A stretch of 64,000 nt of DNA from an uncultured Bacillales bacterium. GTDB taxonomy: Bacteria; Bacillota_I; Bacilli_A; RFN20; CAG-449. A program made the translations under genes and the position numbers. The notes under the pieces were generated by a model. It had not been told where the DNA came from, ran no database searches, and saw only the letters and a list, made by a program, of their open reading frames with translations. Shown piece after piece: positions 831 through 59,630 of this stretch (the stretch's first letter is position 1; every line of letters starts with the position of its first letter). Location: NCBI GenBank assembly GCA_946641515.1, contig CAMPBT010000003.1, positions 56,079-120,078 of the forward strand, read 5' to 3'.

Positions 831-853
831 ATCACAATTCTAACTTTTTTTAT

Positions 854-21186: not shown

Positions 21187-21444
21187 ATGCAAATATTACC
21201 TATTAAGGATTTAAGAGATACTAATAAAATATCCGATTTATGTAATGAGACTAATGAACCTATATTTATAACTAAAAATGGTTATGGTGATATGGTTGTA
21301 ATGAGTATTAAAACATATGAAGAAAAATTAGAAAGAATTGAAATGTATGAAGCTATAATTGAAGGACTTCAAAATGTCAATGATGGTAAAATTAAAAATG
21401 GACCTTCTGCCATTGAGGAGTTAAAGAAGAAATATGATTTATAG
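21187..21444 (+). CDS. type II antitoxin, Phd/YefM family
   Basis: 85 aa. MQILPIKDLRDTNKISDLCNETNEPIFITKNGYGDMVVMSIKTYEEK matches the Phd/YefM fold pattern. Overlaps the downstream toxin gene by 11 nt. Confidence 0.7.
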   Translation: MQILPIKDLRDTNKISDLCNETNEPIFITKNGYGDMVVMSIKTYEEKLERIEMYEAIIEGLQNVNDGKIKNGPSAIEELKKKYDL

Positions 21445-21733
21445 TTATGAATTAACTGACTTAGTAATAAAAGATATAGATGATACTTTAAATTATATTT
21501 CTAATAAATTATGCAATAAAAAAGCTGCGATTGACTTGATGAATAACATAGAGGCTTGCATAAATAATATATGTGCATTCCCGTTATCTTATCCAAATTG
21601 TAACTATTATTTAATTAAAGATGATTCTATTAGACATGCAGTAATTAAAAATTATATTCTTGTTTTTAAAATTTATGATAATAAGATAGTATTTTTAAGA
21701 TTTAAATACTCAAAGCAAAATACACTTTTATAA
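21434..21733 (+). CDS. type II toxin, RelE/ParE family
   Basis: 99 aa small basic protein immediately downstream of and overlapping a Phd-like antitoxin. C-terminal RelE/ParE-like pattern. Terminator hairpin at 21735-21768. Confidence 0.6.
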   Translation: MIYSYELTDLVIKDIDDTLNYISNKLCNKKAAIDLMNNIEACINNICAFPLSYPNCNYYLIKDDSIRHAVIKNYILVFKIYDNKIVFLRFKYSKQNTLL

Positions 21734-37868: not shown

Positions 37869-38127
37869 TCATTATTAATTATAATTATTATATACGCATG
37901 AGCTACCCTCTATTAAGAGAGTAGCTTTTTTATACTCAATTCTATGTATATGTAGTGATTTACAAAAAAATAGAATGATTTTCACAAAAAACTTTCGAAA
38001 ATTTTCTTATTTTGAGAGGTATTTAAAAAGTTATCTCTATTTTTAAACATTTGTGTGACATTATGCACGAAAACGTTGCGAAATGCCTAAAAAAGGCCAC
38101 TTTATGCCAAAAAAATGTAATAAAATT

Positions 38128-38152
38128 TTTTTTAAAGACGTTTCGTGCCAAA
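38128..38152 (+). promoter_or_regulatory. conserved TTTTTTAAAGnnTTTCGTGCCAAA box (copy 1) upstream of cassette 1
   Basis: TTTTTTAAAGACGTTTCGTGCCAAA. Related ATGCCAAAAAAATG at 38102-38117. The same box recurs at 49165-49190, 49391-49410, 50763-50841 and, inverted, at 52641-52680. Confidence 0.5.
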
Positions 38153-38270
38153 TTTTTGGATACTTATGTAACGCCTCTACTTTTATATCCTTTTATTAAG
38201 TATGATAATCGAGGCTTTTGAAAAAAGGCACGCGAATAAAATCATTAGTATAAATAAAGGAGAAAGAAAT

Positions 38271-38765
38271 ATGAAGTTATTAAATAGAGTTACATTATTA
38301 TCAGTCTTAGGTATCTCAGCATTAGTAGGTACAGGTTACGCTGCATGGACATTCTCTGCATCAGCAGAAAACAAAACAGCAAACGCAGCACTCTTAATCA
38401 CAGATGCAAACACTGTTGGTGAAATCTCATTCAAAACAAATACAGCAAAATTCACTTTAGATCAATCAGGTATCACATGGGAAGGTGAAATCGTTGCAGA
38501 TTATTCTTCAGTTGGTTCAGAAGTTGAAGATCCATCAATTGAAAAATCATGGACAGCAGCAATTCCTGCAGAATTAGCAACATACGTTACATTCGTAGAT
38601 GCTTCAACAACAATCTCAGGCACATGGGAAGATGATGTTGCAATCGTTTTACCAGAACTCGTTTACACAGCAAACAAGCCAACAACAAAATCAGCTTACG
38701 ATACAATGGTTAGCTTAATCTCAGAATCAAATATCACATTCACATTCTCAGCAACAATTGCATAA
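38271..38765 (+). CDS. small exported TasA/camelysin-like protein with SipW-cognate-type signal peptide (paralog A1)
   Basis: ORF 38202..38765. Start preferred at ATG 38271, with AAAGGAGAAAG RBS. N-terminus MKLLNRVTLLSVLGISALVGTGYAAWTFSAS. C-terminus ...NITFTFSATIA. Paralogous to 50973..51503 and 53022..53507. Confidence 0.7.
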   Translation: MKLLNRVTLLSVLGISALVGTGYAAWTFSASAENKTANAALLITDANTVGEISFKTNTAKFTLDQSGITWEGEIVADYSSVGSEVEDPSIEKSWTAAIPAELATYVTFVDASTTISGTWEDDVAIVLPELVYTANKPTTKSAYDTMVSLISESNITFTFSATIA

Positions 38766-38865
38766 TATATTTAATTAACTTACATATATAATAAATCGGC
38801 CGTAGTTCAGAAATGCACTTCGGCCATTATCATAAATAATGGTTCAAAGAAAGGAGGTACCAGTT

Positions 38866-39801
38866 ATGAAAAAAATCAAAATGATCTTAACAGCATTAAT
38901 TGGTGCTCTATTTCTTGGAACAGCCGCTGCTACAGTAGCTACAACAGGATTTGCAGCATGGACATTCTCTTCAAATTCTTACAACACTCAATCAATCAGA
39001 GGTGCAATAAACGAATGGGAATTTGCTTCTTATGAAAGCATCTTTGAATTTGATGAAGAAACAGGAACTATCTTATACATCAAACAAATCATTGATGAAA
39101 ATGGAACAGTCACTGTACCAAATGAAATTAACGGTGTCCCAGTTACACATATTGACAAGTATGCATTTAGCAATCAGCCTAGTTTAACATCAATTGTTAT
39201 CGAAGCAGAAAACTTAACAATTGAAAGCTATGCTTTCTATGGTGACTACAACTTAAAAGAAATCACTTTACCTTCTTCAACAAAATTACTCAAATATTCA
39301 TTTGCTAATTCAGGATCATATAACTCAGATACAAAGACATATTCAATTGACAGCGTTACATTCACAGGAAGCGCTACTGAATTAACAGGTAACCAAGTAT
39401 TCAAAGGATTAGAAATTAACACAATTACAATCCCTGCAATCGTTACTAACGTTGAAAAATCATTCTTCGATGGTGTTGAAGATTACGAAATGATCAATTA
39501 CGGTGGATCTGTTGAAGACTTCGTTGGTACAGATCATAACAACGATACATATTCAATCTTTGAAGGTTTAGTTTATAACTTACGTAATAGAAATGCTGGT
39601 ACATATGCTTACCAAGCTCCAACAGCATTAACAATCTCTGGCAGAGTATTCTACTTAAATCAAAGCAACTTTACACAGAACTTATTACATTACTACGCAG
39701 AAGATGGTTCATATATTGTATATAACTTTAACAATCGTGTTAAGGTTAGCGGCAGCACATACGATAACTCAAATTGCTACTATTATTACATTGCAGAATA
39801 A
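38866..39801 (+). CDS. exported BspA-type leucine-rich-repeat (LRR_5-like) protein with SipW-cognate-type signal peptide (paralog B1)
   Basis: ORF 38839..39801. Start preferred at ATG 38866, with AAAGGAGG RBS. N-terminus MKKIKMILTALIGALFLGTAAATVATTGFAAWTFSS. LRR_5-like repeats (VTVPNEINGVPVTHIDKYAFSNQPSLTSIVI...). Terminator at 39802-39840. Confidence 0.65.
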   Translation: MKKIKMILTALIGALFLGTAAATVATTGFAAWTFSSNSYNTQSIRGAINEWEFASYESIFEFDEETGTILYIKQIIDENGTVTVPNEINGVPVTHIDKYAFSNQPSLTSIVIEAENLTIESYAFYGDYNLKEITLPSSTKLLKYSFANSGSYNSDTKTYSIDSVTFTGSATELTGNQVFKGLEINTITIPAIVTNVEKSFFDGVEDYEMINYGGSVEDFVGTDHNNDTYSIFEGLVYNLRNRNAGTYAYQAPTALTISGRVFYLNQSNFTQNLLHYYAEDGSYIVYNFNNRVKVSGSTYDNSNCYYYYIAE

Positions 39802-40019
39802 AATGCAAAACGGCTCAATGAGCCGTTTTCTTTTGCATTAAGCACAAATTACAATTACATTTATATAAATCTCTTAAATAGGCTTAAACTAATAAATAAC
39901 AAGCATTCACAGTTTAATAATAATATTAAAAATTACAAAGAACATATTTCTCTTTGGCATATTTTTTACATCTAAATAAAGTAAATCGAGTAGGGAGTAA
40001 AATTAGATAATTTCCTCTC

Positions 40020-40560
40020 CCTCTCACACCACGTAACGTGCCGTTCGGCATTACGCGGTTCAACTTACTTTTAAAGTATGCCTTGACATACTTTCCGCTT
40101 CTTCTCCTTTCCGCTTCTAAGATTTATTTCCTACGTATTGGATATTCTTTGAGATACGCTCATACCTTTTCCTGTCGGATATACCTTAGAAACATACATT
40201 TGTTAAAGCGATGTAAATTGTTTGGTCCTTCCTCTACTGAGTACTATGACCTCTGCTGACTTCCTATAGTTCGCTTTTCTAGGATTTCTCCTCTATAGGA
40301 CCTCACGGGATAAGTTATATATCTTTCCTCGTTTACCTACCTAATTTACGGATTAAGATTACGTTTGCCTTTTGGACTTTATTGCTTTTGGTCAACTTGT
40401 CCACTTAATTCGCCTTGATATTAGGTTTCTATTCGTTAGGCCACGATTTCGCTATCCCTTCTTTTCATGCGTAGTTACCTAGAGGCACTTTGGGAGTCGC
40501 TATCGGGTTGGTCGGCAAATACCTCTCTTCGGACTTTCATCGTAGATATATGACATGCCC
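40020..40560 (-). ncRNA. ORF-free, strand-asymmetric (purine-rich on minus strand) structured region; candidate large ncRNA of unassigned class
   Basis: About 540 nt with no credible ORF; the 73-aa frame at 40038..40259 is low-complexity. Multiple local hairpins, e.g. CGTAATGCCGAACGGCACGTTACG and GAAAGTATGTCAAGGCATACTTT. Bounded by the LRR-gene terminator at 39802-39840 and the rpsR terminator at 40566-40600. Strand assignment is tentative. Confidence 0.3.
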
Positions 40561-40565
40561 GTCAT

Positions 40566-40600
40566 ACCAAAAAAACCGTCCAATTAATGGACGGCTTAAT
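40566..40600 (-). terminator. intrinsic terminator of the rpsF-ssb-rpsR operon
   Basis: On the minus strand: GCCGTCCATTAATTGGACGG followed by TTTTTTT. Confidence 0.8.
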
Positions 40601-40620
40601 TTGCTTTTTGTTTTCCTTAA

Positions 40621-40848
40621 TTAGTCTTCTACGTAAGGAAGAAGTGCAACGAATCTTGCGTTTTTGATTGCTTGTTCGACTGCTCTCTGGTGCTTTGCAC
40701 AAGTACCAGTGACTCTTCTTGGAGAAATCTTTCCGTTTGGAGAGATGAATTTCTTTAATAATTCAACATCCTTATAGTCGATTTCCTGGTTTTTATTCTT
40801 ACAGAAGATACAAACCTTTTTTCTAGGTCTCATTTTCTTAAAAGCCAT
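40621..40848 (-). CDS. rpsR: 30S ribosomal protein S18
   Basis: ORF 40621..40872. Start probably at [13 protein letters not shown].... Conserved CxFC and RRVTG...KHQR motifs. Confidence 0.9.
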
Positions 40849-40901
40849 GCTATATCCTACCTTTCTTCTCACATTTGTGAGAGCATCAACATTTACCGTT
40901 A

Positions 40902-41351
40902 CTAGAATGGTAAATCGTCATCTGCGACATCGATAGAAGTTACGTTCTTTTTGCTTTCGTCTTCAGAAGGGATTGGATCTGGTTGGTAACCAAAATCTTG
41001 GTCTGGTTCAACAACAGAGTTTGCTGCACCATTTCTTCTTTCAAGACTATTAACGTTGTCACAAACAACTTCGATTACTTGGACCTTGCGGCCATCCTTA
41101 GAATCATAAGATCTCTGGTTTAATCTACCGTCGACTGCAACTAAAGAACCCTTGAAAGCATATTTTGTAATATAATCTGCTCTCTGTCCCCAAGCAGTAC
41201 ATGGAATGAAAGATGTTGTTCTTTCTTGATTGTCCTTGCTTGTTGGATTGTCAATAGCGACTGTGAAGGATGCGACTGACATGCCACTAGTTGTCTTTCT
41301 AAGTTCTGGATCTCTGGTCAAGCGACCTACTAAAACTACTCTGTTAATCAT
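40902..41351 (-). CDS. ssb: single-stranded DNA-binding protein
   Basis: 149 aa. [18 protein letters not shown]... OB-fold. Acidic C-terminal tail ending DDDLPF. Confidence 0.95.
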
Positions 41352-41380
41352 AACTGAATCTCCTTTATGCTATAGGAAAC

Positions 41381-41665
41381 TTATTTAGCTCTGACAAACT
41401 GACGTAATACTTGTGGATTTAATTTAGCAAGTCTGCTAAATTCATCAACTACTGCTGGTGATGCAACTGTAGCATCAACAACTACGTAATATCCTTTGAT
41501 TTCCTTGTTGATTTCGTATGCTAAATCTCTTAAACCCCATTCATTAACATTGTCAACAGTGCTGTTGTCTGCTGTTAATGCTTCGTTTAATTTTCCGATT
41601 AATGCGTTACGTGATGCATCATCAAGGTCAGCTTTTAAGATATACATAATTTCGTATTTTCTCAT
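41381..41665 (-). CDS. rpsF: 30S ribosomal protein S6
   Basis: 94 aa. MRKYEIMYIL... typical S6. Operon rpsF-ssb-rpsR. Confidence 0.93.
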   Translation of the reverse strand: MRKYEIMYILKADLDDASRNALIGKLNEALTADNSTVDNVNEWGLRDLAYEINKEIKGYYVVVDATVASPAVVDEFSRLAKLNPQVLRQFVRAK

Positions 41666-41860
41666 ATCTTTTACCTCCCTATGGTCTTATCTGGCTACTC
41701 CTAAATTAAAGTAGCAGAGAAGCTTTTGTCATGGGCCTTCACTCCCATTCTCTAATACTATAACTTAGTTATAGGAGGTTGTAAAGTAAAAATTGTCGAA
41801 CTTCTAATTCTCCTACACTAAATCTATACACAATTTTAAATAAAATCCCAAAAAATATTT

Positions 41861-43111
41861 TTATAACTTTTCTTTTCCTACTGCAATCATAAGTTTAATT
41901 CTATTTTCTTGATTGACTTTAGTTTGAGAAGGATCGTAATCAATTGCAACAATATTTGCTAAAGGATATTTATCCTTTAATTCTTTCATAACGCCTTTAC
42001 CACAAATATGGTTAGGTAAGCAACCGAATGGTTGAGCGCAGACAATGTTTTCATATCCAGTTTGAATTAATTCAACCATTTCTGCAGTTAATAAGAAACC
42101 TTCTCCCATCTTAACCGCGTGAGACAAAATTCCATTAGATAAATTGACTGTATGTTTAAAAGGCATCATCGGTGTAAAACTTGTATACTTTTCAATGGCT
42201 TTTATCATCAATTTTTCACGTTTTTCTAGGTATTTTATAAGTCCTTTGTAAATTAAATTTTTGATGGTAGAACCACCATAAATTTCTTTATCATACTGAG
42301 GAACATATAACGAATAATAAACAAAACCTAGAAGTCCTGGAACATTAACTTCGCATCCTTGTTCTACTAAAAATGTCTCTAAATTATTATTAGCAAGAGA
42401 AGCATATTTAACATAGATTTCTCCGACCACACCAACTTTAACTTTCTTTTCATTTGTAATTGGTAATTTATTAAATTCTTCACAAATATATCTATAATTT
42501 TTAGACATTTCACGTGCACCAATACCAGAACCATTTTTAAGTTTTTCTGCAAGAACTTTAGTTATTTTATTAACTAACTCTTCTGCAGAACCTTTTGTAA
42601 TTTCATAGCTTCTAGTCTTGTTGTAAAGATACATAATTAAGTCGCCATAAAAAACCGCTACACCTAATTTTGTTGCCATTTTTAAGTCAAGTTTAAAACC
42701 AGAATGTTCAAGTCCTTGCATAGAAACTGAAATAACAGGAACATGGCCAAATCCCGCTTTTTTTAACGCTTTTCTAAGTAAATAGATATAGTTAGATGCT
42801 CTACATCCTCCACCAGTTTGAGTAAGAATCAAAGCAACTTTTGAAGTATCTTCCATATGCTCTAAAGCATCAATAAATTGACCAATAACTAAAGTAGCAG
42901 GATAACAAGTATCATTATGAACATACTTAAGACCTACTTGAGCAACACCTTCAAAATTATCACAAACTTTGCATTTATATCCTGCTTGAACAAGGACTTC
43001 CTTCATAAGTTTCATATGAACATCAAGCATAGAAGGAATTAAGATTGTATAGTCTTTAACCATCTCTTTAGTAAAGACAGGATAATCAATTACTTTATTA
43101 TTTCTTTTCAT
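41861..43111 (-). CDS. 2-hydroxyacyl-CoA dehydratase family protein (HgdB/D-component-like)
   Basis: 416 aa. Overall resemblance to dehydratase beta/D-component proteins (Cys residues C...C...GGGC, conserved GxxG pockets). Overlaps the upstream fusion gene by 14 nt, as expected for an operon partner. Confidence 0.5.
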   Translation of the reverse strand: MKRNNKVIDYPVFTKEMVKDYTILIPSMLDVHMKLMKEVLVQAGYKCKVCDNFEGVAQVGLKYVHNDTCYPATLVIGQFIDALEHMEDTSKVALILTQTGGGCRASNYIYLLRKALKKAGFGHVPVISVSMQGLEHSGFKLDLKMATKLGVAVFYGDLIMYLYNKTRSYEITKGSAEELVNKITKVLAEKLKNGSGIGAREMSKNYRYICEEFNKLPITNEKKVKVGVVGEIYVKYASLANNNLETFLVEQGCEVNVPGLLGFVYYSLYVPQYDKEIYGGSTIKNLIYKGLIKYLEKREKLMIKAIEKYTSFTPMMPFKHTVNLSNGILSHAVKMGEGFLLTAEMVELIQTGYENIVCAQPFGCLPNHICGKGVMKELKDKYPLANIVAIDYDPSQTKVNQENRIKLMIAVGKEKL

Positions 43112-46013
43112 TTTTATCCTCCTTTTCTAAAGCAGCGAATAAAGATCTTAATCTAATCTTAACTGCACCTAAGTTAGTAATTTCATCAATCTTGATTTGA
43201 GTATAAATCTTGTTTTTAGCTTCTAAGATTTCTTTAACTTCATCAGTAGTAATAGCGTCAAGTCCACATCCGAAAGAAACAAGTTGAACAAGTTCCATAT
43301 TCTTTTTAGTACTTACATAGTTTGCAGCATTATATAGTCTTGCGTGATATGTCCACTGATTAAGAACATGACGAGGAAGCTTTTCAACTCTATTTGATAA
43401 AGAAGATTCAGTAATAACTGCTTTATCAAATCCTGCGATCAATTTATCAATACCATGATTAATTAATGGATCAACGTGATAAGGTCTACCACATAAAACA
43501 ACAATACGTTTTCCGCTTTTTTCCGCTTCTTCAATAATCTCTTCACCTTTACGACGAATATCGCTTAAATATGAAGAATATTCTGCGTAAGCTTTATCAA
43601 CTGCATTAAGAATATCTTTTTTCTTTAACGTACTATCAAACTTACGAAGAATAGGGACTATTCTCTTCTTAAAATATGGTTCATTATGTATACCAACATA
43701 ATCAAAGACATAATTAACATCTTGAAGTCTCATCACATTGTTATGCAATTGTTCTGGATAATACGCAACAACTGGACAGTTATAATGATTATCAGAAATC
43801 TTTTCATCAATATTATATGACATACCAGGATAGAAAATATTTGTATAACCTTCATTTAACAATTTTTCAATGTGACCATGAGCAAGTTTTGCGGGGAAAC
43901 ATTCAGTATCTGAAGGAATTGTATGTTGACCTGATGAATATAATTTTTCATTAGAAAAACCAGAATTATGAACTTCAAAACCAAGTTCAGTAAGTAATGT
44001 AAACCAGAAAGGATATAACTCATACATATTTAAACAAAGAGGAATACCAATCTTTGCTCTTTTGCCGTGTACTGGTTCATAAGAAGCAATTTTTTGTCTT
44101 ATATATTCATATAAGTTTAATGAATTATCTTGAGCTTTCTTAGTAAGAGGTCTTTCACATCTATTACCTGAAATATATCTATTTTTGTTATTAAAGACAT
44201 TAATAGATAAATCGCAGTGGTTATTGCATAATCCACATTTAGTATTAATAATCTTATGCTCAAAATTTTTAATTTCTTCTGCACTTAAAATATTAGATTT
44301 TTCTAATTCTAAATCTTTAGCATATAATGCAGCACCATACGCTCCCATTAAGCCAGCAATATTTGGTCTAATTACTTCTTTACCAAGCATCTGTTCAAAA
44401 GATCTTAAAACCGCTTCGTTATAGAAAGTACCGCCTTGAACAACGATATGATCACCTAACTTAGCAGTAGAAGTAACTCTAATAACTTTGTATAAAGCAT
44501 TTTTAACAACAGACATTGCTAAACCTGCAGAAATATTATCAATAGTCGCGCCATCTTTTTGAGCCTGTTTAACAGAGGAATTCATAAAAACGGTACATCT
44601 AGAGCCTAAATCTACCGGTTTTTTAGCAAGTAATCCAATACGAGCAAATTCACTGACATCATAACCAAGTGCATTTGCAAATGTCTGTAAGAAAGAACCG
44701 CATCCAGACGAGCATGCTTCATTTAAGAAGATGTTAGTAGTAATTCCGTGTTCAACTTTAAAACACTTAATATCTTGTCCACCGATATCAATAATAAAAT
44801 CTACATCTTTTTGGAAATGTTTCGCAGCTTCTAAATGTGCCATAGTTTCAACTAGCCCACCATCAAGTTGGAAAGCATTTTTAATTAAATCTTCACCATA
44901 TCCTGTTGAAGCGGCACCTTTAATTAATAAATCAGGTTTTAAATCATACATCTCAGTTAAGATGTCTTTTAACATCACAACTGGATTACCTTTATTAGGT
45001 AAATATTTAGTAAAACGAATATTTAAATCTTCATCAATTAAGCAAACTTTAATAGTAGTAGAGCCAGAATCAATACCTAAATAGAATGGTCCGTTATAAG
45101 AATCATCTAAAGGTAAAGTATTTACATACGCTTTAGCGTGTCTTTCTCTAAATTCTTTTAATTCTTCTTCATTATTAAATAATGGAGATAATGATTTGTA
45201 ATGACCTTTAGATTCATGATGTTCAATCTTATAAATTAAATCATCAATAGTCATCTCGCCATTTGCACTTAATGCTGCACCCATTGCAACATAATAAAGT
45301 GAATTAGGAGGACAAATACCTTTACATTTTAAAGTTTCATCAAAGCTCTTTTGAAGTTCACTCATAAATGTTAAAGGTCCACCTAAATAAACAATCTTAC
45401 CTTGAATATCTCTTCCTTGAGCAAGTCCACCAATAGTTTGATTAACTACAGCTTTAAAAATAGATGCTGCAATATCTTTTTTATCTGCACCTTGGTTAAG
45501 TAAAGGTTGAATATCAGTTTTAGCAAAAACACCACATCTAGAAGCAATGTTATAGATTTTGCCGTGTTCTTTAGCAATGTCATTTAAATCTTCAATTGAA
45601 ATATTAAGTAAGGTAGACATTTGGTCAATAAAAGCACCAGTACCACCTGCACAAGATCCATTCATTCTAACTTCAAGTCCATTAGATAAGAATAAAATTT
45701 TCGCGTCTTCCCCGCCAAGTTCAATGACACAGTCTGTACCTGGAATAAACTTATTCACTGCAACTCTAGTTGCATATACTTCTTGAACAAAATCAATGCC
45801 TAAATCTTCACAAAGTCCCATACCTGCAGAGCCAGAAATAGCAACATGTAATTCTGAATCACCTAACTTATTTTTAATATCTTTTAATATCTCTAAAAGA
45901 TTCTCTTTGATATGAGAATAATGTCTTTTATAAATATCATATTTAATATTCGTATTATCATCAAAAACAATTGCTTTAATTGTAGTTGAACCAATATCAA
46001 GTCCTAGTCTCAT
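43098..46013 (-). CDS. acyl-CoA dehydratase activase-related fusion protein: two BadF/BadG/BcrA/BcrD (HgdC-like) ATPase domains plus a C-terminal dehydratase-component-like domain
   Basis: ORF 43098..46031. Start preferred at MRLGLDIGSTTIKA (46013). A second actin-fold start motif YLGIDSGSTTIKVCL lies about 320 aa later. Cys cluster KCGLCNNHCDLS...GNRCERP. C-terminal half HgdB-like. Confidence 0.6.
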   Translation of the reverse strand: MRLGLDIGSTTIKAIVFDDNTNIKYDIYKRHYSHIKENLLEILKDIKNKLGDSELHVAISGSAGMGLCEDLGIDFVQEVYATRVAVNKFIPGTDCVIELGGEDAKILFLSNGLEVRMNGSCAGGTGAFIDQMSTLLNISIEDLNDIAKEHGKIYNIASRCGVFAKTDIQPLLNQGADKKDIAASIFKAVVNQTIGGLAQGRDIQGKIVYLGGPLTFMSELQKSFDETLKCKGICPPNSLYYVAMGAALSANGEMTIDDLIYKIEHHESKGHYKSLSPLFNNEEELKEFRERHAKAYVNTLPLDDSYNGPFYLGIDSGSTTIKVCLIDEDLNIRFTKYLPNKGNPVVMLKDILTEMYDLKPDLLIKGAASTGYGEDLIKNAFQLDGGLVETMAHLEAAKHFQKDVDFIIDIGGQDIKCFKVEHGITTNIFLNEACSSGCGSFLQTFANALGYDVSEFARIGLLAKKPVDLGSRCTVFMNSSVKQAQKDGATIDNISAGLAMSVVKNALYKVIRVTSTAKLGDHIVVQGGTFYNEAVLRSFEQMLGKEVIRPNIAGLMGAYGAALYAKDLELEKSNILSAEEIKNFEHKIINTKCGLCNNHCDLSINVFNNKNRYISGNRCERPLTKKAQDNSLNLYEYIRQKIASYEPVHGKRAKIGIPLCLNMYELYPFWFTLLTELGFEVHNSGFSNEKLYSSGQHTIPSDTECFPAKLAHGHIEKLLNEGYTNIFYPGMSYNIDEKISDNHYNCPVVAYYPEQLHNNVMRLQDVNYVFDYVGIHNEPYFKKRIVPILRKFDSTLKKKDILNAVDKAYAEYSSYLSDIRRKGEEIIEEAEKSGKRIVVLCGRPYHVDPLINHGIDKLIAGFDKAVITESSLSNRVEKLPRHVLNQWTYHARLYNAANYVSTKKNMELVQLVSFGCGLDAITTDEVKEILEAKNKIYTQIKIDEITNLGAVKIRLRSLFAALEKEDKNEKK

Positions 46014-46230
46014 TATAATACCCCGCTTCATTAAAAATTATAGGAGGGTATTTATTAAAAATAAATAAAATCCAAAATTTAAAAATTTTTTGTTATTATT
46101 TTCAAGTTGTTAATAGGCACTTTTAGAAAAAGTGTCTATTTACTTTGTTATATAAATAGATTAAAACTACTATTTACAAAAATTATTAAAATTTTAAATT
46201 GGTTTCATTATAATAAAGGCAGGTTAACAT

Positions 46231-47016
46231 ATGAGAAAACAAAAAACTGTTTATTACAAAGATGAAATTAATGATGATTTTGCAGGCACAAATATCATCA
46301 CTCAACCTCTACGAGAAGATTATCATTATGTCCATAAAGGTTTTGTATGGAACTTTTTTGCATTTATCTTCTATTGGATAATTGCTTTCCCATTAGTATT
46401 CCTAATCCAAAAGCTTTGGACACATCAAAAAATTGTTAATAAAAAAGTTTTAAAAGAAGCAAGAAAGAAAAAGACGGGATATTTTATTTATTGTAACCAT
46501 ACTCAGTTATTCTCAGATGCAGTTACTCCTGCTTTAATTGCTGCTCCTCATAAAGCATATGTCACTGCTCATCCAGACTGTGTCTCCATTCCACTAGTAA
46601 AAGTACTCGTAGAATGGGCAGGAGGGCTTCCATTAAGTTCTACATTCAAAGGAATGAAAAATATGTATCGAGCGATGGATTACCGCCTAAAACATAAAAA
46701 CGTTATTACTATTTTTCCAGAAGCTCATATCTGGCCTTATTATAATAAAATTAGACCATTTATCGATTCTTCATTTGCCTACCCTGTCAAATTCAACGTA
46801 CCAGTATACGCAGTAACTACTACTTATTACAAAAAGAAATATTTTATTAAGCCAAGAATTAAAACATTCGTAGACGGACCTTTCTATCCAGACCCTTCTT
46901 TATCTCCAGTAGAAGCTAGAGAAAAGTTAAGAGATCAAGTATATAACGTTATGTGTGAACGTGCGGAAAAATATTCCACATATGAATATGTTAAATACGT
47001 AAAAAAAGAAGATTAG
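46231..47016 (+). CDS. lysophospholipid acyltransferase-like (PlsC-family) protein
   Basis: 261 aa. N-terminal TM. NHTQLFSD (HX4-5D-like) and FPEAHIW (FPEGTR-like) motifs. Confidence 0.45.
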   Translation: MRKQKTVYYKDEINDDFAGTNIITQPLREDYHYVHKGFVWNFFAFIFYWIIAFPLVFLIQKLWTHQKIVNKKVLKEARKKKTGYFIYCNHTQLFSDAVTPALIAAPHKAYVTAHPDCVSIPLVKVLVEWAGGLPLSSTFKGMKNMYRAMDYRLKHKNVITIFPEAHIWPYYNKIRPFIDSSFAYPVKFNVPVYAVTTTYYKKKYFIKPRIKTFVDGPFYPDPSLSPVEAREKLRDQVYNVMCERAEKYSTYEYVKYVKKED

Positions 47017-47044
47017 AAAATCACTAATCTTCTTATTTTTTTGC

Positions 47045-48208
47045 CTATTTTTGATATAAATCAATAGCCTTTTTTAGTCTAGATAAAGCATCAATAACAT
47101 TACTTCTTTGAGTAGCAAGATTCATTCTCAAGAAAGATAATCCACCTTCTCCATATTCTTCTCCATCAGATAAATATAAACCTGTAGTATCTAAAATATA
47201 ATCTCTTAATTTAGTACCATTTGGTTCAACATTAGAAACATCTATCCAAAGTAAATACAAAGCATCTGATTCAATAACTTTTAAAGAAGGAATTTCTTTG
47301 TTAATGTAATCTCTAACATAATCTTTATTTGCAAAGACATATTCTCTTAATTCATCAATCCATTCTTCACCTTTATAGAACGCTAGTTGAGGAGCTATTG
47401 TTGCAAGAGTATTAGCTTCTGCACATTCATCAGTATTTAATCCTCTTTCAAATTTATGTTTTAAATATGGATTTGGAATAACCGCCATAGAGGTTTGAAT
47501 TCCCGCGATATTAAAGCATTTTGTAGGTGCAATTAATGTTAATGAATTATTTAAATTAGTTTCAGAAACTGATGCAAAAGGAATATAAGATTTTCCAGGT
47601 CTAGTTAAATCACCATGAACTTCATCAGAAATAACTACAACATTATATTTTTTACATAATTCACCAATTCTAATTAATTCTTCTTTAGTCCAAATCTTAC
47701 CAATTGGATTATGAGGATTACAGAAAATTAAAGCAGAAGTTTCTTCTAACGCTAATTTATTTTCTAAATCGGCCCAATCAACTTCATAAATTCCATCTTT
47801 ATATAAAAGTTTATTTTGTAATGGTTTTCTTCCATTATTAACAATTGAATTAAAGAATATATTATAGACCGGAGTCATAACCACAACATTATTTGCCACT
47901 TCAGTCAATCTTCTAACAGCAGAAGAAATAGAAGGAATAACACCTGTAGAAAAAACCATCCATTCTTTTTTTATTTCAAAATGATAACGTTTATTCCACC
48001 AATAGATATAAGATTCAAACATTGAAGGAGGAAGAATATTATATCCGTAAATACCTTGATTAATTCTTTCTTTAAATCCTTCAATAATTTCAGGAGCAGT
48101 CTCAAAATCCATATCTGCAATCCACATAGGAAGGACATTGTCCTTAACATCCCATTTAACCGAGTATGTATTACGTCTATTAGTAGGTTTATCAAAGTTA
48201 TATTTCAT
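47045..48208 (-). CDS. PLP-dependent C-S lyase (MalY/PatB-family cystathionine beta-lyase-like aminotransferase)
   Basis: 387 aa. Aminotransferase class I/II fold with the PatB/MalY N-terminus (KYNFDKPTNRRNTYSVKWD). Confidence 0.75.
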   Translation of the reverse strand: MKYNFDKPTNRRNTYSVKWDVKDNVLPMWIADMDFETAPEIIEGFKERINQGIYGYNILPPSMFESYIYWWNKRYHFEIKKEWMVFSTGVIPSISSAVRRLTEVANNVVVMTPVYNIFFNSIVNNGRKPLQNKLLYKDGIYEVDWADLENKLALEETSALIFCNPHNPIGKIWTKEELIRIGELCKKYNVVVISDEVHGDLTRPGKSYIPFASVSETNLNNSLTLIAPTKCFNIAGIQTSMAVIPNPYLKHKFERGLNTDECAEANTLATIAPQLAFYKGEEWIDELREYVFANKDYVRDYINKEIPSLKVIESDALYLLWIDVSNVEPNGTKLRDYILDTTGLYLSDGEEYGEGGLSFLRMNLATQRSNVIDALSRLKKAIDLYQK

Positions 48209-48213
48209 ATTAT

Positions 48214-49053
48214 TTACCCCTTAATAATAATTTCAGTTTTAGATGGATCAATTTCATTCTTATCCATAATTAATTCATCAATACCTTCACATACTAGTCT
48301 ACCAGAAATAATGTTCTTAACAGAATCAATACGAGAATTAATTTCACAATTAATTGTAGAATATTCAAATGCCAAGTTTGTATTTTCTAATTTACAATTC
48401 TCCATAACTAAGTTTTCCATATAACAGAAACCTTGTTCACTTTCGATTGTACAGTTAACTAATTTAACATTTTTAGAGTTCCAACCAAAATATTCACCTC
48501 TAATAACAGAATCGTAAACTTCAACATTTTCACAATTCCAAAATGAATCTTTTGAATTTAAGATAGAGTTTTTAACAACAATGTTCTTACCTCCATCAAG
48601 AATATAATTGCCATCTAAAATTAAGTTTTCAATTACTACGTCAGAAGAATCTTTTAATAAGTAATCCCCTTTAGCTTTAACATTCTTCATATTAATATGA
48701 TCACATGACCATAAAGTTTCTTTAGCATCCAAGAATTCAGTATCTTCAATAGTTATAAATGATGCTCTTCTAAATTCTTTAGGAGCTTCTACTAAGCAAT
48801 TCTTTAATTTAATGTTCTTTGTATACCAAATACCAGATCTAGACATAACTTTAAAAGTAGAATTATTAACTTCAAAGTTTTCTCCATACCATAAAGGATA
48901 TTTCCATTCAAACGATGAATTGTTTATAACAACATTCTTACTTTCTTTTAATGGAGATTCTCCATCTTTGAAAGTAGAATTATTAATAACTAAATCACGA
49001 GATTTAAAAAGTGCTCTTTCACCTGTAAAAGTACCATTTTCTAAAATTTTCAT
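48214..49053 (-). CDS. right-handed parallel beta-helix repeat protein (DUF3737-like)
   Basis: 279 aa of repeated about 22-aa units (VxNNSTF / NxxLxN...). 5 nt separate it from the patB-like gene, so likely co-transcribed. Confidence 0.5.
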   Translation of the reverse strand: MKILENGTFTGERALFKSRDLVINNSTFKDGESPLKESKNVVINNSSFEWKYPLWYGENFEVNNSTFKVMSRSGIWYTKNIKLKNCLVEAPKEFRRASFITIEDTEFLDAKETLWSCDHINMKNVKAKGDYLLKDSSDVVIENLILDGNYILDGGKNIVVKNSILNSKDSFWNCENVEVYDSVIRGEYFGWNSKNVKLVNCTIESEQGFCYMENLVMENCKLENTNLAFEYSTINCEINSRIDSVKNIISGRLVCEGIDELIMDKNEIDPSKTEIIIKG

Positions 49054-49164
49054 AATTAAACCTCCATGTAAGACTAATATAATTATAAATAATTATTAAT
49101 TTTTATTCGTGACATTATCACATTATATATTGTGTTTAATATCAATTTAAATTTTAAAAATTAT

Positions 49165-49190
49165 TATTTTTTTAAAGTTTTCGTGCCTAT
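49165..49190 (+). promoter_or_regulatory. conserved TTTTTTTAAAGTTTTCGTGCC box (copy 2) upstream of the SipW-like gene
   Basis: Near-identical to 38128-38150. A second related site ATCGTGCAATTTGTGCCACAATG lies at 49391-49413. Confidence 0.45.
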
Positions 49191-49464
49191 TTTGATAATA
49201 TTTCACATTTATAATCAATAGTTTTGCTATTTTTATTGCAGACAAAAGTATTTTTCGGCTATTTACATTAATTTTATCGGTATTTATTATTGTTTTAATA
49301 TATTGTATCTATATTATATCATTTATATATATACGTACGCGCACGCGCATTGATAGATGTTATCTCAAAAAAAGTGCTTTTGTGTATCAAATCGTGCAAT
49401 TTGTGCCACAATGTTTAAAATTATATAATATTAATGTAAAAATATAGATGTAAGGAGGGATATT

Positions 49465-50499
49465 ATGACCACTTTTGCAACAGTAATTGTATTAATTATA
49501 TTGTCATTAATTATTTTCGCCTTTATTGGCGTTGCGTTATATTCTATTTTTAAATCAGAAAAAATTATTGTAAGTAGAAAAGAACGTGACCAGTTGATAA
49601 TTAAAGAACAGCAAAAAGAAAAGAAACCATCTAAAGCATCTAAAACTACTTCAATAGTATTTACAATCATTGGATATGTCATTGTATTTGGAATCTTAAT
49701 CTTTGAAGGATTTGCAGTTATTACTAATTCATCAAATAACTTATTGTTCATCGGAAACAATGCAAATTTAGTAGTAGCATCAGATTCTATGTCTACTATT
49801 GATAGTTCCGCTCAATTAGAAGCAAATGGTGGTTATTTGACAGACGATATGTTAAATGACCAATTCCAGATTGGAGATATTCTCTCTTTCTCAAAATTAC
49901 CATCTACAGAAAAAGAATTATTATCTTATACAGAAACCGGAGAACTAGAATATGTTGATGAATTAAATAAAAAAGTCAATTCTCCATATTTATATAAAGT
50001 ATTCGCATTCAAATACACTTTACCTGAAAAAGGTGAATCAATCGTATTACATAGACTTGTAGAAATTAGAGAAGTCTCTACTGCAAGTGGATCAACATAT
50101 CAATATGTTTTCATAGGAGATAAATATCCAAAATCAAGCCAAGTAGTAACTTATAAGAGTTTACTAGGTATTTATACTAGAGGAAGAATATCAGGGCTCG
50201 GATATCCAATTTTATTCTTAGGATCTGCTTATGGAGCCTACTCAGTTCTTGGAGCGTTATTCATTATTATCGCGACATCATACTTTACTAAAAAATTATC
50301 TAAGCTCTATTCAGATAGATATGACCAAATCAAAAAAGAAAAATTCGATACAGAATTCTCTTCAGACACATTTAAGAATCGTAGGCATGAAGTAGAAGAA
50401 AAAGTAATCGAAGCTGAAGAAGTTAAAGTCATCCCAAAAGATCATCAATCTCAAGAAGATGATAATTCAGATATTGGAAGTCTAAAGAAGAGAGATTAA
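49465..50499 (+). CDS. candidate ER/archaeal-type (SipW-like, Ser/His) signal peptidase I with extended architecture
   Basis: 344 aa. N-terminal TM (FATVIVLIILSLIIFAFIGVALY). Box-B-like VVASDSMSTI (Ser). Box-D-like IVLHRLVEI (His, not Lys). GDK segment. C-terminal TM (ILFLGSAYGAYSVLGALFIIIATSYF), as in SipW. Sits between cassettes of SipW-cognate-signal proteins. RBS AAGGAGGG. Confidence 0.5.
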   Translation: MTTFATVIVLIILSLIIFAFIGVALYSIFKSEKIIVSRKERDQLIIKEQQKEKKPSKASKTTSIVFTIIGYVIVFGILIFEGFAVITNSSNNLLFIGNNANLVVASDSMSTIDSSAQLEANGGYLTDDMLNDQFQIGDILSFSKLPSTEKELLSYTETGELEYVDELNKKVNSPYLYKVFAFKYTLPEKGESIVLHRLVEIREVSTASGSTYQYVFIGDKYPKSSQVVTYKSLLGIYTRGRISGLGYPILFLGSAYGAYSVLGALFIIIATSYFTKKLSKLYSDRYDQIKKEKFDTEFSSDTFKNRRHEVEEKVIEAEEVKVIPKDHQSQEDDNSDIGSLKKRD

Positions 50500-50762
50500 G
50501 ACTCACTACCGTTCAAAATGGACGGTAGTTTTTTTATTATAAAATCACTTTGCAAATTACTTATAATCTGTAAAGTTACAAACGTTTATCCCAAAAAATG
50601 TTAAACTTTTAACCCTACATTTGTAACATTTTTGGTATAAAACTGAAAGTGTATCTCTCAATGGAGCATCAAGAAAAGAACATTTGTTCCTTTCTTTGAT
50701 TTTCGAGTCAAATTTTTACTATTTTAAAAAGGAACATTTTAACATATTTCGTTTAAAATCTT

Positions 50763-50841
50763 GTCGTTTTGTGCCAAATATTAGTTACATTGTGCCAGTG
50801 TTTGAATAATTTTATGTTAAATTGGTCGTTTTGTGCCAAAT
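50763..50841 (+). promoter_or_regulatory. three CGTGCCA-family boxes (GTCGTTTTGTGCCAAAT x2 plus TTGTGCCAGTG) upstream of cassette 2
   Basis: GTCGTTTTGTGCCAAAT at 50763-50779 and 50825-50841. ACATTGTGCCAGTG at 50787-50800. Confidence 0.5.
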
Positions 50842-50972
50842 TTAGAAATTCCTATGAAAATTGCCTTTTTATAGCCTAAATCTATTATATGATGAAGGTG
50901 TCTTCAGGAGAGGAAGATAAAAACTAACCCATCTATTAAATGGATTAATTAAATAAAAGGAGAGTAATTATT

Positions 50973-51503
50973 ATGAAATTATTAAATAGAGTCACATTAG
51001 TATCAGTCTTAGGCGTAGCAGCTGTCATCGGTACAGGTTACGCTGCATGGACATTCTCAGCAGACACAACTGCAAACGCTAACGCAAATGTATTAATCAC
51101 ATCAGCATCAGAACAGGCAGGTACAATCACATTTGATAAAACTGTTAAATTAGTACTTGATCAAGGTTGGATTGGTTGGATTGATGCAGGAGTAGCTCCA
51201 AAAGATGCATACACTAACGAAGATGCACTTGCTTCAATCGTACCAACATTAACTCCATATGCAGGTTCTGAAACATTAGTAAGCGAATACGCATTAACTT
51301 GTTCAGTTAATTACGGCAATTTTACAAATTACTTAAACTTCGGTGCTTTCGCAACAACATGGGAATCAGGTTCAGCAGTTGCTTTACCAACAGTTTCTTG
51401 GAAAGATGGAATGAAGCCAACAACATTAACTGAATACAATACAATGAAAACTGCACTTCAAAATTTACAAATTGTCTTTACATTTAATGCAGACGTTGCT
51501 TAA
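50973..51503 (+). CDS. small exported TasA/camelysin-like protein with SipW-cognate-type signal peptide (paralog A2)
   Basis: 176 aa. MKLLNRVTLVSVLGVAAVIGTGYAAWTFSAD. C-terminus ...QIVFTFNADVA. The first about 100 nt are roughly 85% identical to 38271... at the DNA level. Confidence 0.7.
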   Translation: MKLLNRVTLVSVLGVAAVIGTGYAAWTFSADTTANANANVLITSASEQAGTITFDKTVKLVLDQGWIGWIDAGVAPKDAYTNEDALASIVPTLTPYAGSETLVSEYALTCSVNYGNFTNYLNFGAFATTWESGSAVALPTVSWKDGMKPTTLTEYNTMKTALQNLQIVFTFNADVA

Positions 51504-51640
51504 TTAGATTAAAAAAAATGGCCGTAGTTCCTAGTGAGCTTCGGCCATTATATAGATATAACCATAATAAATATATATAAGTTAAATATTTATAATTATA
51601 TTAAATAATAAAAACCTACCACTATGAAAGGAGGGCAAAT

Positions 51641-52489
51641 ATGAGAAAGCATAAATTTTTAACTTTCCTATTAGCGTACAGTATCCTTTTTAGTGGTGTA
51701 ATGCTTAGTAGTTACGCTACTAAAGGCTATGCAGCCTTTACTTTCAGCGCTGAATCAACTAGTATAAATCCTGTTCCAACAGTAGTAACAAATTGGACAT
51801 TCAACAATCAAGAGCCAGGAACAACTATTGTAATCGATGGAAATGGTAATGCTACAATTTCTGGTGGAGAGCATGATGGTGAATCAGTAGAAATTACATA
51901 CGTTACTGATGATGAAGGAAATAGTTTAATCAATAATGGTTCTGTAACAACACAAATTGAAATTAATGAAGACGGAACAGTTTCAATCACTCAATTTGAT
52001 GTCACACCTGGATCAGGTTCAATTGGAGACATCAATTATATCTTCTATGGTGAAACTTTATATTTACCAAGCCAATACGTTATTGATGGGCAAGTATATC
52101 CTGTTTCTTCATTAGATCAACCGCTTAAAGTTGAAAAAGCTAAACTTTTAATTGGCATTGCAGCAGTTAACAATGTAATTGTACCTGAAGGATATGTATC
52201 CTTATGTGCTGAAGCATTCTACGGTAACAATTGTTCTTTCAAAACTCCAGTAGCCTTTAATTTACCTTCAACATTAACAAGTATTGGATATCACGCAATT
52301 GATTTAGCAGATAGCCCTAAAATTAATTACGCAGGTACAAAAGCTCAATTTAGAGCATTATCAAATAACTCCGGTAACTGGGTAGGAAGATCAAGCGGAT
52401 CTAACAATACTATTACAGTAACTTGTTCAGACGGAAATTTAACTGTAAGATACAATAATAATAATAATGGTACAATAACTATTTCTTAA
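51641..52489 (+). CDS. exported BspA-type LRR (LRR_5-like) protein with SipW-cognate-type signal peptide (paralog B2)
   Basis: 282 aa. MRKHKFLTFLLAYSILFSGVMLSSYATKGYAAFTFSAE. LRR_5-like segment IVPEGYVSLCAEAFYGNNCSFKTPVAFNLPSTLTSIGYHAI. C-terminal INYAGT motif shared with B1 (INYGGS). Confidence 0.65.
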   Translation: MRKHKFLTFLLAYSILFSGVMLSSYATKGYAAFTFSAESTSINPVPTVVTNWTFNNQEPGTTIVIDGNGNATISGGEHDGESVEITYVTDDEGNSLINNGSVTTQIEINEDGTVSITQFDVTPGSGSIGDINYIFYGETLYLPSQYVIDGQVYPVSSLDQPLKVEKAKLLIGIAAVNNVIVPEGYVSLCAEAFYGNNCSFKTPVAFNLPSTLTSIGYHAIDLADSPKINYAGTKAQFRALSNNSGNWVGRSSGSNNTITVTCSDGNLTVRYNNNNNGTITIS

Positions 52490-52640
52490 TTCCCCTATTA
52501 ACAAATTGTAAACTCATCTATATAATAAAAGTGTAGATGAGTTTTTTTATTAAATAATTAAAAAGAGATAAATTGATAATTTTGTTAAAGAAAATAATAT
52601 TGAATATGATACATTCAATTCTTAATGATAAATATAAAGT

Positions 52641-52680
52641 TTGGCACGGATAGACATTTTTCTGGCACGGATGGGATTTC
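52641..52680 (-). promoter_or_regulatory. two inverted-orientation copies of the CGTGCCA box (TTTGGCACGG, TCTGGCACGG) upstream of cassette 3
   Basis: AAAGTTTGGCACGGATAGACATTTTTCTGGCACGGATGGG. Confidence 0.45.
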
Positions 52681-53021
52681 CATTTGTTACAATAAAGGAA
52701 AAATCGATTATAAATGTTACTCTAAATTTTCAAGTGATACATATGATAAATTTATCGATTGTGTTTCTTTGATACAAAGAGCTTTGTAAAGTAATGCATA
52801 TACAAATGTTACATTTTTAAAGAGATATTAAACAAATGTGTTTGTTAGTGTGCAAAATCAACATAGTTAATCGATAGCAAGTCTATCAGTTTAAAAAATA
52901 TCGATTTAAGTACTTGCCAAGTTTCGAATATTTGCTATATTGAGGGTGACCTGAGGGAAACCTAACACATCTAACCAAAAAATATGCTTATCGAAAATAA
53001 TAGAATAGGAAAGGAGATAGT

Positions 53022-53507
53022 ATGAAACTCACAGCAAAATTAAATTTAGTTAGCATTCTTGGTTTAACAGCTATTGTTGGTGTTGGCTACGCAGCGTTTA
53101 CTTTCAGTGACGACGCTACTATATCTTCTCTCTCACAAGCTCATATCACTCAAGTACAAGAATTCGGTGAAGTCGAAGTTACAAATACAAATCTTAACAT
53201 TGTATTAGATCAAAAAGAAATCACATGGACTGGTTCAGTCAAAGCAGTTAGAAAAGGTCAATGTGCTAACTTAGATACTACTAATACATGGACTGCTACA
53301 TTATCAGATAATTTAGCATACTACGTTAGATTTGCAGGTGATGCATCTACTTATACAAACGTTGTTTGGGAAGATAACGTTGAAATTTCTCTTCCTAAAC
53401 TTGAATATGTTGAAGAACATAAACCAACAACATTATCACAATATAATGTAATGACAAGTGTTCTTGCAGGCGAAATGGTTAATTTCTCATTCACTGCAGC
53501 AAAATAA
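53022..53507 (+). CDS. small exported TasA/camelysin-like protein with SipW-cognate-type signal peptide (paralog A3, singleton)
   Basis: 161 aa. MKLTAKLNLVSILGLTAIVGVGYAAFTFSDD. C-terminus ...VNFSFTAAK. Shares the internal HKPTTLSQYNVM motif with A1 (KPTTKSAYDTM) and A2 (KPTTLTEYNTM). Confidence 0.7.
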   Translation: MKLTAKLNLVSILGLTAIVGVGYAAFTFSDDATISSLSQAHITQVQEFGEVEVTNTNLNIVLDQKEITWTGSVKAVRKGQCANLDTTNTWTATLSDNLAYYVRFAGDASTYTNVVWEDNVEISLPKLEYVEEHKPTTLSQYNVMTSVLAGEMVNFSFTAAK

Positions 53508-59482: not shown

Positions 59483-59630
59483 CCTTTCAGACCTAGTACG
59501 CCCAAAAGGATAGAATAAAATACATTGTGTTAGAATCCTTCCGCTAGCATTACCTAGATCAAGTTATTGGTCCCATAAGTCACACTTATGATCTCAGCCT
59601 AGTTTACTAAGCACCCATACTAAATTGTTT
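59483..59630 (-). promoter_or_regulatory. TPP (THI-box) riboswitch with SD-sequestering terminator hairpin
   Basis: Minus-strand RNA: UGGGUGCUUAG...GGCUGAGAUCAUAAGUGUGACUUAUGGGACCAAUAACUUGAUCUAGGUAAUGCUAGCGGAAGGA matches the THI element consensus (CUGAGA, ACCUGAUCUGGAUAAUGCCAGCG-AGGGA). Expression platform CCUUUUGGGCGUACUAGGUCUGAAAGG plus U7 lies immediately before the ATG at 59474; its 3' arm holds AAAGGA (SD). Confidence 0.85.

Follow-up and report, generated by a model that had tools for sequence, protein, structure and literature searches.

The stretch of DNA analysed here, a 64-kb portion (64,000 nucleotides, referred to as the window) of contig CAMPBT010000003.1 from an uncultured Bacillales bacterium, is a housekeeping-rich stretch of a compact genome, has 30% G+C and includes secA, uvrB, dnaB, dnaX, the rpsF-ssb-rpsR operon and the gene for tmRNA. 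Within it lies a locus of four terminated transcription units, all on the plus strand. Cassette 1 (38271-39801) encodes a small subunit (38271-38765) and a large LRR_5 protein (38839-39801). It is followed by the gene for a 344-residue, SEC11/SipW-like membrane protein (49465-50499), by cassette 2 (50973-52489), which comprises a small subunit (50973-51503) and a large protein (51641-52489), and by cassette 3 (53022-53507), which is a small subunit alone. Because every unit is terminated, each needs a promoter of its own, and the upstream regions are long for a compact genome at 400-530 bp. We describe in these regions a short box with the consensus T-Y-GTGCCA-AA, which is supported as a shared cis-regulatory element that would link the peptidase-like gene, cassette 2 and its paralogue cassette 1. 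We put at roughly 60% the probability that a single transcription factor, whose gene lies elsewhere in the genome, binds this box.

The window was compared with near-identical contigs in metagenome assemblies from ENA, JGI and Logan, with sample names that point to the human gut, and with close-strain loci (L001-L004, L007 and L018-L021). Genome and metagenome scans also gave distant homologue loci (L006, L008-L017, L022-L026, L033 and L034), labelled as metagenome-assembled genomes (MAGs) of uncultured Mollicutes or Bacilli. The informative relatives are contigs L027 and L030, in which the peptidase-like protein is 59% and 57% identical to that of the window. Both are syntenic with it, in the order DUF3737, peptidase-like gene, small subunit, large subunit, small subunit and Bax1-I.

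The preliminary description of this DNA had proposed a common operator with the core CGTGCCAAA in front of all four transcription units. A GTGCC-type box is indeed found in all four upstream regions, but the proposed core is too strict. Exact CGTGCCA occurs only three times in the window (38144 on the plus strand, 52642 and 52663 on the minus strand), so that the common core is better written YGTGCCA. The four upstream regions total 1,818 bp, against 5,273 bp for the remaining intergenic DNA of the window. In a k-mer screen that was not guided by any earlier motif, GTGCCA emerged as the top 6-mer (binomial p=2.2e-8, Bonferroni 4.5e-5) and as the sole top G+C-containing 6-mer found in all four regions. 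Seven of its 13 window matches fall in the four upstream regions and six inside genes, with none in the other 5,273 bp of intergenic sequence. The extended form YGTGCCARW has six window matches, which all lie upstream of cassettes 1, 2 and 3 (38144, 50770, 50791 and 50832 on the plus strand, 52640 and 52661 on the minus strand). A 20-nucleotide matrix built from the cassette 1 and cassette 2 sites only finds its best other window match at the cassette 3 site (52636, minus strand), and it ranks the two sites upstream of the peptidase gene approximately 29th and 30th in the window.

Cassette 2 carries the fullest arrangement, with four direct boxes on the plus strand. Box A (TGTGCCAAA, 50770-50778) and box B (TGTGCCAGT, 50791-50799), 21 bp from it, form an upstream pair, and box C (TGTGCCAAA, 50832-50840) and box D (TATGAAAAT, 50853-50861) form a promoter-proximal pair, followed by a predicted -10 hexamer TATGAT (50888-50893) that starts 56 bp after the start of box C. 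Cassette 1 has the same order on the same strand. Its strong distal box C (CGTGCCAAA, 38144-38152), within the best-conserved block of alignment A7, is followed by a degenerate proximal box D (TATGTAACG, 38165-38173) exactly 21 bp further on and by a predicted -10 TATGAT (38201-38206) at 57 bp from the start of box C. Upstream of these, the degenerate box A (AATGCCTAA, 38082-38090) and box B (TATGCCAAA, 38103-38111), which both read ATGCC, are in register with boxes A and B of cassette 2 and keep its spacing of 21 then 41 bp. An alignment of some 280 bp joins the upstream regions of the two cassettes (score 92, with 40.5±6.3 for shuffled sequences; z ~8), and by it the two promoters are judged to be copies of one ancestral promoter. 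The remaining pairs of upstream regions have no detectable homology.

The same plan is found in the two other species. Upstream of cassette 2, YGTGCC stands at 11229, 11250 and 11290 in L027 and at 7734, 7755 and 7795 in L030, a spacing of 21 then 40 bp compared with 21 then 41 bp in the window. Across the aligned cassette promoters (four sequences from three species) box starts are separated by 21 bp from A to B in 4/4 promoters, by 40-41 bp from B to C and by 21 bp from C to D. The best-conserved 9-column windows of this alignment are box C (8/9), then box D (CTTATGAAA) and box A (7/9). The motif CTTATG.AA at +21 and the TAT.AT of the -10 element are each kept in all four sequences, with hexamers that read TATGAT, TATCAT and TATTAT at cassette 2 of the window, L027 and L030, and TATGAT at cassette 1.

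The promoter of the peptidase gene carries a pair of the same period. Its strong proximal box TGTGCCACA (49402-49410, plus strand) lies 63 nucleotides before the ATG. The preliminary description had placed a site at 49395-49410, which begins with the non-matching CGTGCAA and contains the true box in its second part. A degenerate distal box TGTGTATCA (49381-49389, plus strand) stands 21 bp before the proximal one. Each of the three species has one TTTGTGCCA 62-63 nucleotides before the peptidase ATG and a degenerate YGTGT(T/A)(A/T)CA exactly 21 bp before that; the relatives have GATGTTACA and CGTGTTACA at this offset. TTTGTGCCA is also the best 9-mer of the peptidase-promoter alignment A8, invariant at 9/9 columns in the three species. 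The predicted -10 element, TG-TAAAAA (49435-49442, plus strand), follows 35 bp after the proximal box and reads TG-TAAAAA, TG-TATAAA and TG-TATTAA across the three species, in all of which ATGTA is invariant; an alternative -10, TATAAT, is present at 49424-49429 (plus strand). Further upstream, the longer element TTTTTTT(T)AAAG..GTTT(T/C)CGTGCC that had been reported as common to two of the regions is real, at 38126-38149 and 49167-49187. The site claimed within its second copy at 49182-49187 is weak: it reads CGTGCCT, without the A, and of the two relatives one has lost it and the other retains it weakly. This lone box-like sequence, CGTGCCTAT inside TTTTTTTAAAGTTTTCGTGCC (49182-49190, plus strand), is poorly conserved and has neither a partner box nor a -10 element at the module distance.

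These promoters share one geometry. Taking the distal box as position 0, the proximal box starts at +21 and a TATNAT, often after TG, at +56 to +58, with no convincing -35; the 21-bp period is common to the cassette promoters, the peptidase promoter in three species and an inverted pair upstream of cassette 3. When the whole window was scanned for a box, a second box at 21 bp and a -10 at 55-58 bp, the five best scores were the five known pairs and no further pair scored comparably. Four of the five carry a -10; the fifth, the cassette 2 A-B pair, owes its rank to the strength of its two boxes alone. The boxes exceed the -10 element and the ribosome binding site in conservation in both promoter alignments, and it is mainly for this reason that we regard the box as functional. 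In the two other species the boxes persist with the 21-bp spacing and the distance to the -10, while the intergenic surroundings have diverged. YGTGCC is also enriched in the orthologous upstream DNA of the relatives (about 1 kb), with 4/6 matches (p=8e-5) and 5/7 matches (p=5e-5).

Cassette 3 is a different case. Two strong inverted boxes, CGTGCCAGA (52669 to 52661, minus strand) and CGTGCCAAA (52648 to 52640, minus strand), 21 bp apart, lie about 350 bp upstream of it. The distal segment that carries them, about 250 bp long, is missing from the relatives; by BLAST this segment has no similar sequence in the window or the fetched loci. Inverted copies had been described earlier, and they exist, although the second is at 52663-52670 and not at 52673-52680. 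A candidate leftward -10, TGTATCAT (52606-52613, minus strand), follows 58 bp after the first inverted box, and the inverted module has the best complete module score in the window. As the pair has a well-placed minus-strand -10, its simplest reading is a lineage-specific, box-dependent leftward promoter. We speculate that such a promoter would point at the cassette 2 terminator and 3' end; no open reading frame follows it. The conserved promoter of cassette 3 itself (52873-52941, plus strand) comprises a palindrome GATAG-N5-CTATC (52873-52887), a -35 TTGCCA (52914-52919) and an extended -10 TGcTATATT (52933-52941). All three species keep the palindrome, a TTG-type -35 and a canonical extended -10 (TGnTATATT). 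Each sequence has the palindrome only once (52873-52887 in the window, 13058 in L027 and 9574 in L030); it sits about 27 bp before the -35 and is probably the site of a different, dimeric regulator. Neither relative has a GTGCC box in the cassette 3 upstream region of about 270 bp. Given a cassette 3 promoter that lacks the box in the relatives, and inverted boxes in a segment which the relatives lack, extending the box to all four transcription units is an overstatement. Control by one regulator has support at the peptidase gene and at cassettes 1 and 2, and none at the promoter of cassette 3 itself. The same upstream DNA also contains, within 205 bp (52702-52906), four of the 13 WATCGATW sites of the whole window; a fifth is present in close strains at 52571-52576, where the window reads ATTGAT.

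Our analysis supports a model in which the working unit would be two direct-repeat boxes whose starts lie 21 bp, or two helical turns, apart, with a TATNAT -10 element starting 35 bp after the proximal box and no good -35. The unit would precede the peptidase gene and cassette 2, the latter with its second pair (A and B) placed 61-62 bp further upstream; cassette 1 would carry a paralogous copy of the cassette 2 promoter, and cassette 3 would rely on its own strong promoter with a different palindromic site. Transcription predicted to start about 6-7 nucleotides past the -10 hexamers puts the box centres near -64 and -43, with those of A and B at about -126 and -105. The positions near -64 and -43 are where a tandem-binding activator, for example a response regulator, would recruit RNA polymerase. 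The promoters thus look activator-dependent, and their geometry fits an activator better than the repression implied by the word operator. With a shared unit, the protease and its presumed substrates would be switched on together despite being encoded in separate transcription units. A broader reading, in which the boxes define the regulon of an undescribed regulator of a large, Pfam-less secretion or fibre system, including in this lineage a box-driven leftward antisense promoter between cassettes 2 and 3 by which that regulator would switch between alternative, allelically diverse subunits, seems to us improbable.

Several observations weigh against a single factor acting through this box. 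The close strains are 93-100% identical here, and the box cores are not significantly less variable than their flanks; one strain reads GTGTCA in cassette 2 box C. Distant relatives, with subunits 30-43% identical and a higher GC content, have no GTGCC box and ordinary sigma-70-like promoters. The boxes of cassettes 1 and 2 are not independent observations, since their promoters are paralogous. The -10 distance in the inverted module is 58 bp rather than 56-57 bp, and a -10 at 49424 (TATAAT) would place the peptidase box over the -35. A conserved block upstream of box A, if a promoter, would have its start ahead of all four boxes A-D, an arrangement typical of repressor sites. Finally, Pfam and NCBIfam annotation of about 50 window proteins, and of the 10 kb to the left, identified no regulator gene for the locus.

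The search for the regulator yielded only YbaB, a Phd/ParE pair and a membrane-anchored Xre-type protein outside the window, none of them linked to the locus. The last is a 202-residue Xre-type helix-turn-helix protein with transmembrane segments and a Cys-rich C-terminus, encoded about 1.5 kb to the left of the window start (L035, 8443-9051, minus strand). It is the sole classical transcription factor identified in about 74 kb and has no box nearby, nor is there a box anywhere in the 10 kb left of the window. Searches of the literature yielded nothing relevant on the box sequence or on SipW-type systems in Mollicutes. Known sites were also considered. EbfC-type TGTWACA, with 5 window matches against 10.5 expected and no enrichment in the relatives, and LexA-type GAAC-N4-GTTC, with one window match, at chance level, were both rejected as explanations. 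The LexA-type match is GAACATTTGTTC (50678-50689), a LexA/Cheo-box-like palindrome that is the window's only GAAC-N4-GTTC, with 0.69 expected by chance.

If the sign of regulation were reversed, the box would be a repressor operator, with the promoter upstream of or over the boxes and a multimeric repressor coating the phased sites. We regard this as unlikely, although it would keep the central claim of one regulator and one box and differs only in the sign of control. The block that invites it, ACATTTT-N-TTTYGTWTA, lies about 20 bp upstream of box A (window 50737-50758, L027 ~11190-11216, L030 ~7695-7721) and may represent a second promoter (in L027 it reads TTTACA-N15-TATAAT) or else one more degenerate box, the fifth, in the 21-bp register. 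A TTTACA-N15-TATAAT-like block is conserved in the relatives just upstream of box A, but it is weak in the window (GGAACA..TTTAAA). With its alternative -10 the peptidase box would likewise overlap a -35; however, all modules share a single geometry, defined by the TATNAT at +56 and the invariant ATGTA at +33.

Less likely still is that the box is itself a promoter element, a -35-like hexamer read directly by an alternative sigma factor. GTGCCA and TTGTGC do resemble a weak TTGACA, the peptidase promoter of the window has a TATAAT 15-17 bp after its box, and GTGCCA-N14-TATGAA is invariant in the cassette promoters. Yet the same spacing that joins a box to that TATGAA also separates boxes A and B, the second of which does not resemble a -10. 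In the cassettes the strong box is the distal one, in the peptidase promoter the proximal, downstream member of the pair; the conserved TATNAT lies 25-26 bp past the box end, too far for a -35; and no sigma factor gene is present in the window. A sigma-54 promoter was rejected separately. The reverse complement of the box is TGGCAC, as in the sigma-54 -24 element (TGGCAC-N5-TTGC), but there is no GC at -12 (the -12 positions at 52642 and 52663 read GACA and GGAT), 6/8 sites are on the wrong strand and face away from the genes, and the boxes here form 21-bp phased arrays.

That the similarity merely records the shared ancestry of duplicated cassettes, with no present function, appears very unlikely. 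Such ancestry is evident in the cassette 1 and cassette 2 alignment described above, and an exact 17-mer is duplicated inside the cassette 2 upstream region. Against this, the boxes stand out as islands of identity, both when the paralogues are compared, although their proteins share only 42-45% identity, and when the species are compared, although the flanking DNA has diverged. The peptidase promoter, which is not homologous to the cassette promoters, has the box at a fixed position in three species.

We give very little weight to the boxes acting as sites of DNA inversion, or together with T tracts as slipped-strand switches, in phase or antigenic variation of the cassettes. The boxes are opposed across cassette 2 (50832 on the plus strand against 52640 and 52661 on the minus strand), and its small subunit is allelically diverse beneath identical upstream DNA. 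However, a single orientation is seen in the window and in 4/4 contigs spanning cassette 2 to the inverted boxes, the window has no recombinase gene, the relatives have direct boxes and no inverted ones, and the shared core is just 9-10 bp. The T tracts that had been noted next to the boxes are present but unremarkable, and phase variation through them is unsupported as none exceeds 8 bases and their density is ordinary. The window holds 45 A/T runs of at least 7 bases, the longest of 8, at 3.9 per kb in the four upstream regions compared with 2.8 per kb in the rest of the intergenic DNA; the four regions contain seven such runs, of which two belong to terminator tails. Comparison of tract lengths across strains, put forward in the preliminary description, gave one length difference, A7 in the window for A6 in L001 and L002 at 49367-49373, which is outside the box pair and 8 bp upstream of the distal peptidase box. 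In cassette 1, T8 for T7+A is a substitution.

That the repeats act at the RNA level, by forming a structure in the leader or by binding a protein there, is no more credible than inversion: the long upstream regions and the promoter candidate upstream of box A would allow it, but there is no conserved structure (consensus fold -0.96 kcal/mol), direct repeats are unable to pair with each other, the 21 and 40-41 bp spacings fit DNA helical phasing, and the peptidase -10 is located after the box.

For an activator binding tandem boxes, the closest parallel is with the LytTR family. The sites of these regulators (AgrA at agr P2/P3, ComE, PlnC/D and VirR) are 9-bp repeats with a 12-13 bp spacer. 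The box pairs fit this pattern in three species: each consists of two imperfect direct repeats, about 9 bp long and with starts 21 bp apart, upstream of a promoter with a poor -35. Their predicted positions near -64 and -43 bear on the comparison only through the start sites inferred above. According to PMC4227749, regulators of the AgrA type recognise, as dimers, a pair of direct repeats that directly precedes a weak promoter. The sequence is different, with a LytTR consensus of [TA][AC][CA]GTTN[AG][TG] compared with YGTGCCAAA here, where only the flank CGTTT resembles it. The locus also has an extra upstream box pair, and no LytTR regulator or kinase gene stands beside it among the window proteins and the 10 kb to the left. 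As the box is unlike the LytTR consensus and no such regulator is nearby, we propose that it works like a LytTR site and not that it belongs to the family.

The gene content is reminiscent of the B. subtilis tapA-sipW-tasA operon, controlled by SinR, AbrB and RemA, in which a dedicated signal peptidase of the endoplasmic reticulum (ER)/archaeal type is co-regulated with the secreted fibre proteins that it processes. In B. subtilis this is one operon with one promoter, whereas here separate terminated units share a box. SinR-type control was rejected, as just 1 of 42 window matches to GTTCTYT falls in the four upstream regions, and the window has no SinR, AbrB or RemA gene. A further likeness is to the phase-variable surface loci of Mollicutes (poly-A promoter spacers; vsa/vpma-type inversions), with which this locus shares paralogous cassettes for surface or secreted proteins, conserved 5' regions, a small low-GC genome and allelic diversity of the subunit. 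It differs from them in that long tracts and a recombinase are lacking and that the contigs examined show neither inversions nor length variants.

The label SipW-like for the 344-residue protein is reasonable given its invariant motifs and a profile match to human signal peptidases. S108-M109, H196-R197 and G218-D219 are invariant in 41 diverse family members, in the order of a catalytic S-M, an H-R and then a G-D, and the 41-member profile matches human SEC11A/C (E=4e-7) over the HR..GD segment. In these motifs the protein looks like a SEC11/SipW-type (S26B) signal peptidase. The family has 1,229 representatives at E<=1e-3 and 188 at E<=1e-30 and is without a Pfam or NCBIfam model, with no match to either database for any member searched. 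Searches of the PDB with the single sequence and with a 6-sequence profile gave no match for the peptidase-like protein, and it took the 41-member profile to reach SEC11. AlphaFold models are of low confidence, with pLDDT 47 for the peptidase-like protein and pLDDT 52 for the small subunit.

The three small subunits are 39-45% identical to one another. In 5/5 cassette proteins the signal peptide ends in G(Y/F)AA(W/F)TFS. The signal peptide of TasA ends in …GGGTWAAFND, which resembles the …GTGYAAWTFS of the cassette proteins. The resemblance is by eye only, and none of the five cassette proteins matched a model of SipW-cognate signal peptides (of the NCBIfam TIGR04088 type). The small subunit of cassette 2 (50973-51503) is 84-85% identical at the amino-acid level to those of L019 and L005, with 87-95% DNA identity per 100 bp. 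In L019 the 366 bp of upstream DNA is identical to the window, and in L005 the ~30-60 bp carried is also identical, which suggests that recombination or diversifying selection acts within the coding part alone.

Through the box, a divergent SEC11/SipW-like signal peptidase can be tied in a concrete and testable way to the regulation of its presumed substrates, the small and large secreted proteins. The motif is a new, well-supported cis-regulatory element of a familiar kind, very probably an ordinary transcription-factor site. It comes from a group of uncultured, low-GC bacteria of the gut whose gene control has hardly been studied. The value of the box lies in a handle on an unstudied surface or fibre system and not in a new principle. 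Its sequence, 21-bp phasing and fixed -10 distance are usable in whole-genome scans across the clade, to trace further members of the regulon and a regulator gene under its own control.

Other features of the window lie outside the regulatory units. The 820-bp gap between cassette 1 and rpsR contains fragments of group II intron domains 1-4 (40225-40484, minus strand; Rfam RF02001 at 96.6 bits and RF01998 at 46.9 bits) and no open reading frame for an intron-encoded protein. At the corresponding place in L027 an acetyltransferase gene stands beside rpsR, and there is no cassette 1. A Phd/YefM-ParE toxin-antitoxin pair (21187-21733, plus strand) sits among housekeeping genes, and a thiamine pyrophosphate (TPP) riboswitch (59518-59628, minus strand) precedes a ThiT-like transporter gene. 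The tmRNA (853-1226, minus strand) encodes the unusual tag GNRNQLSYAAC.

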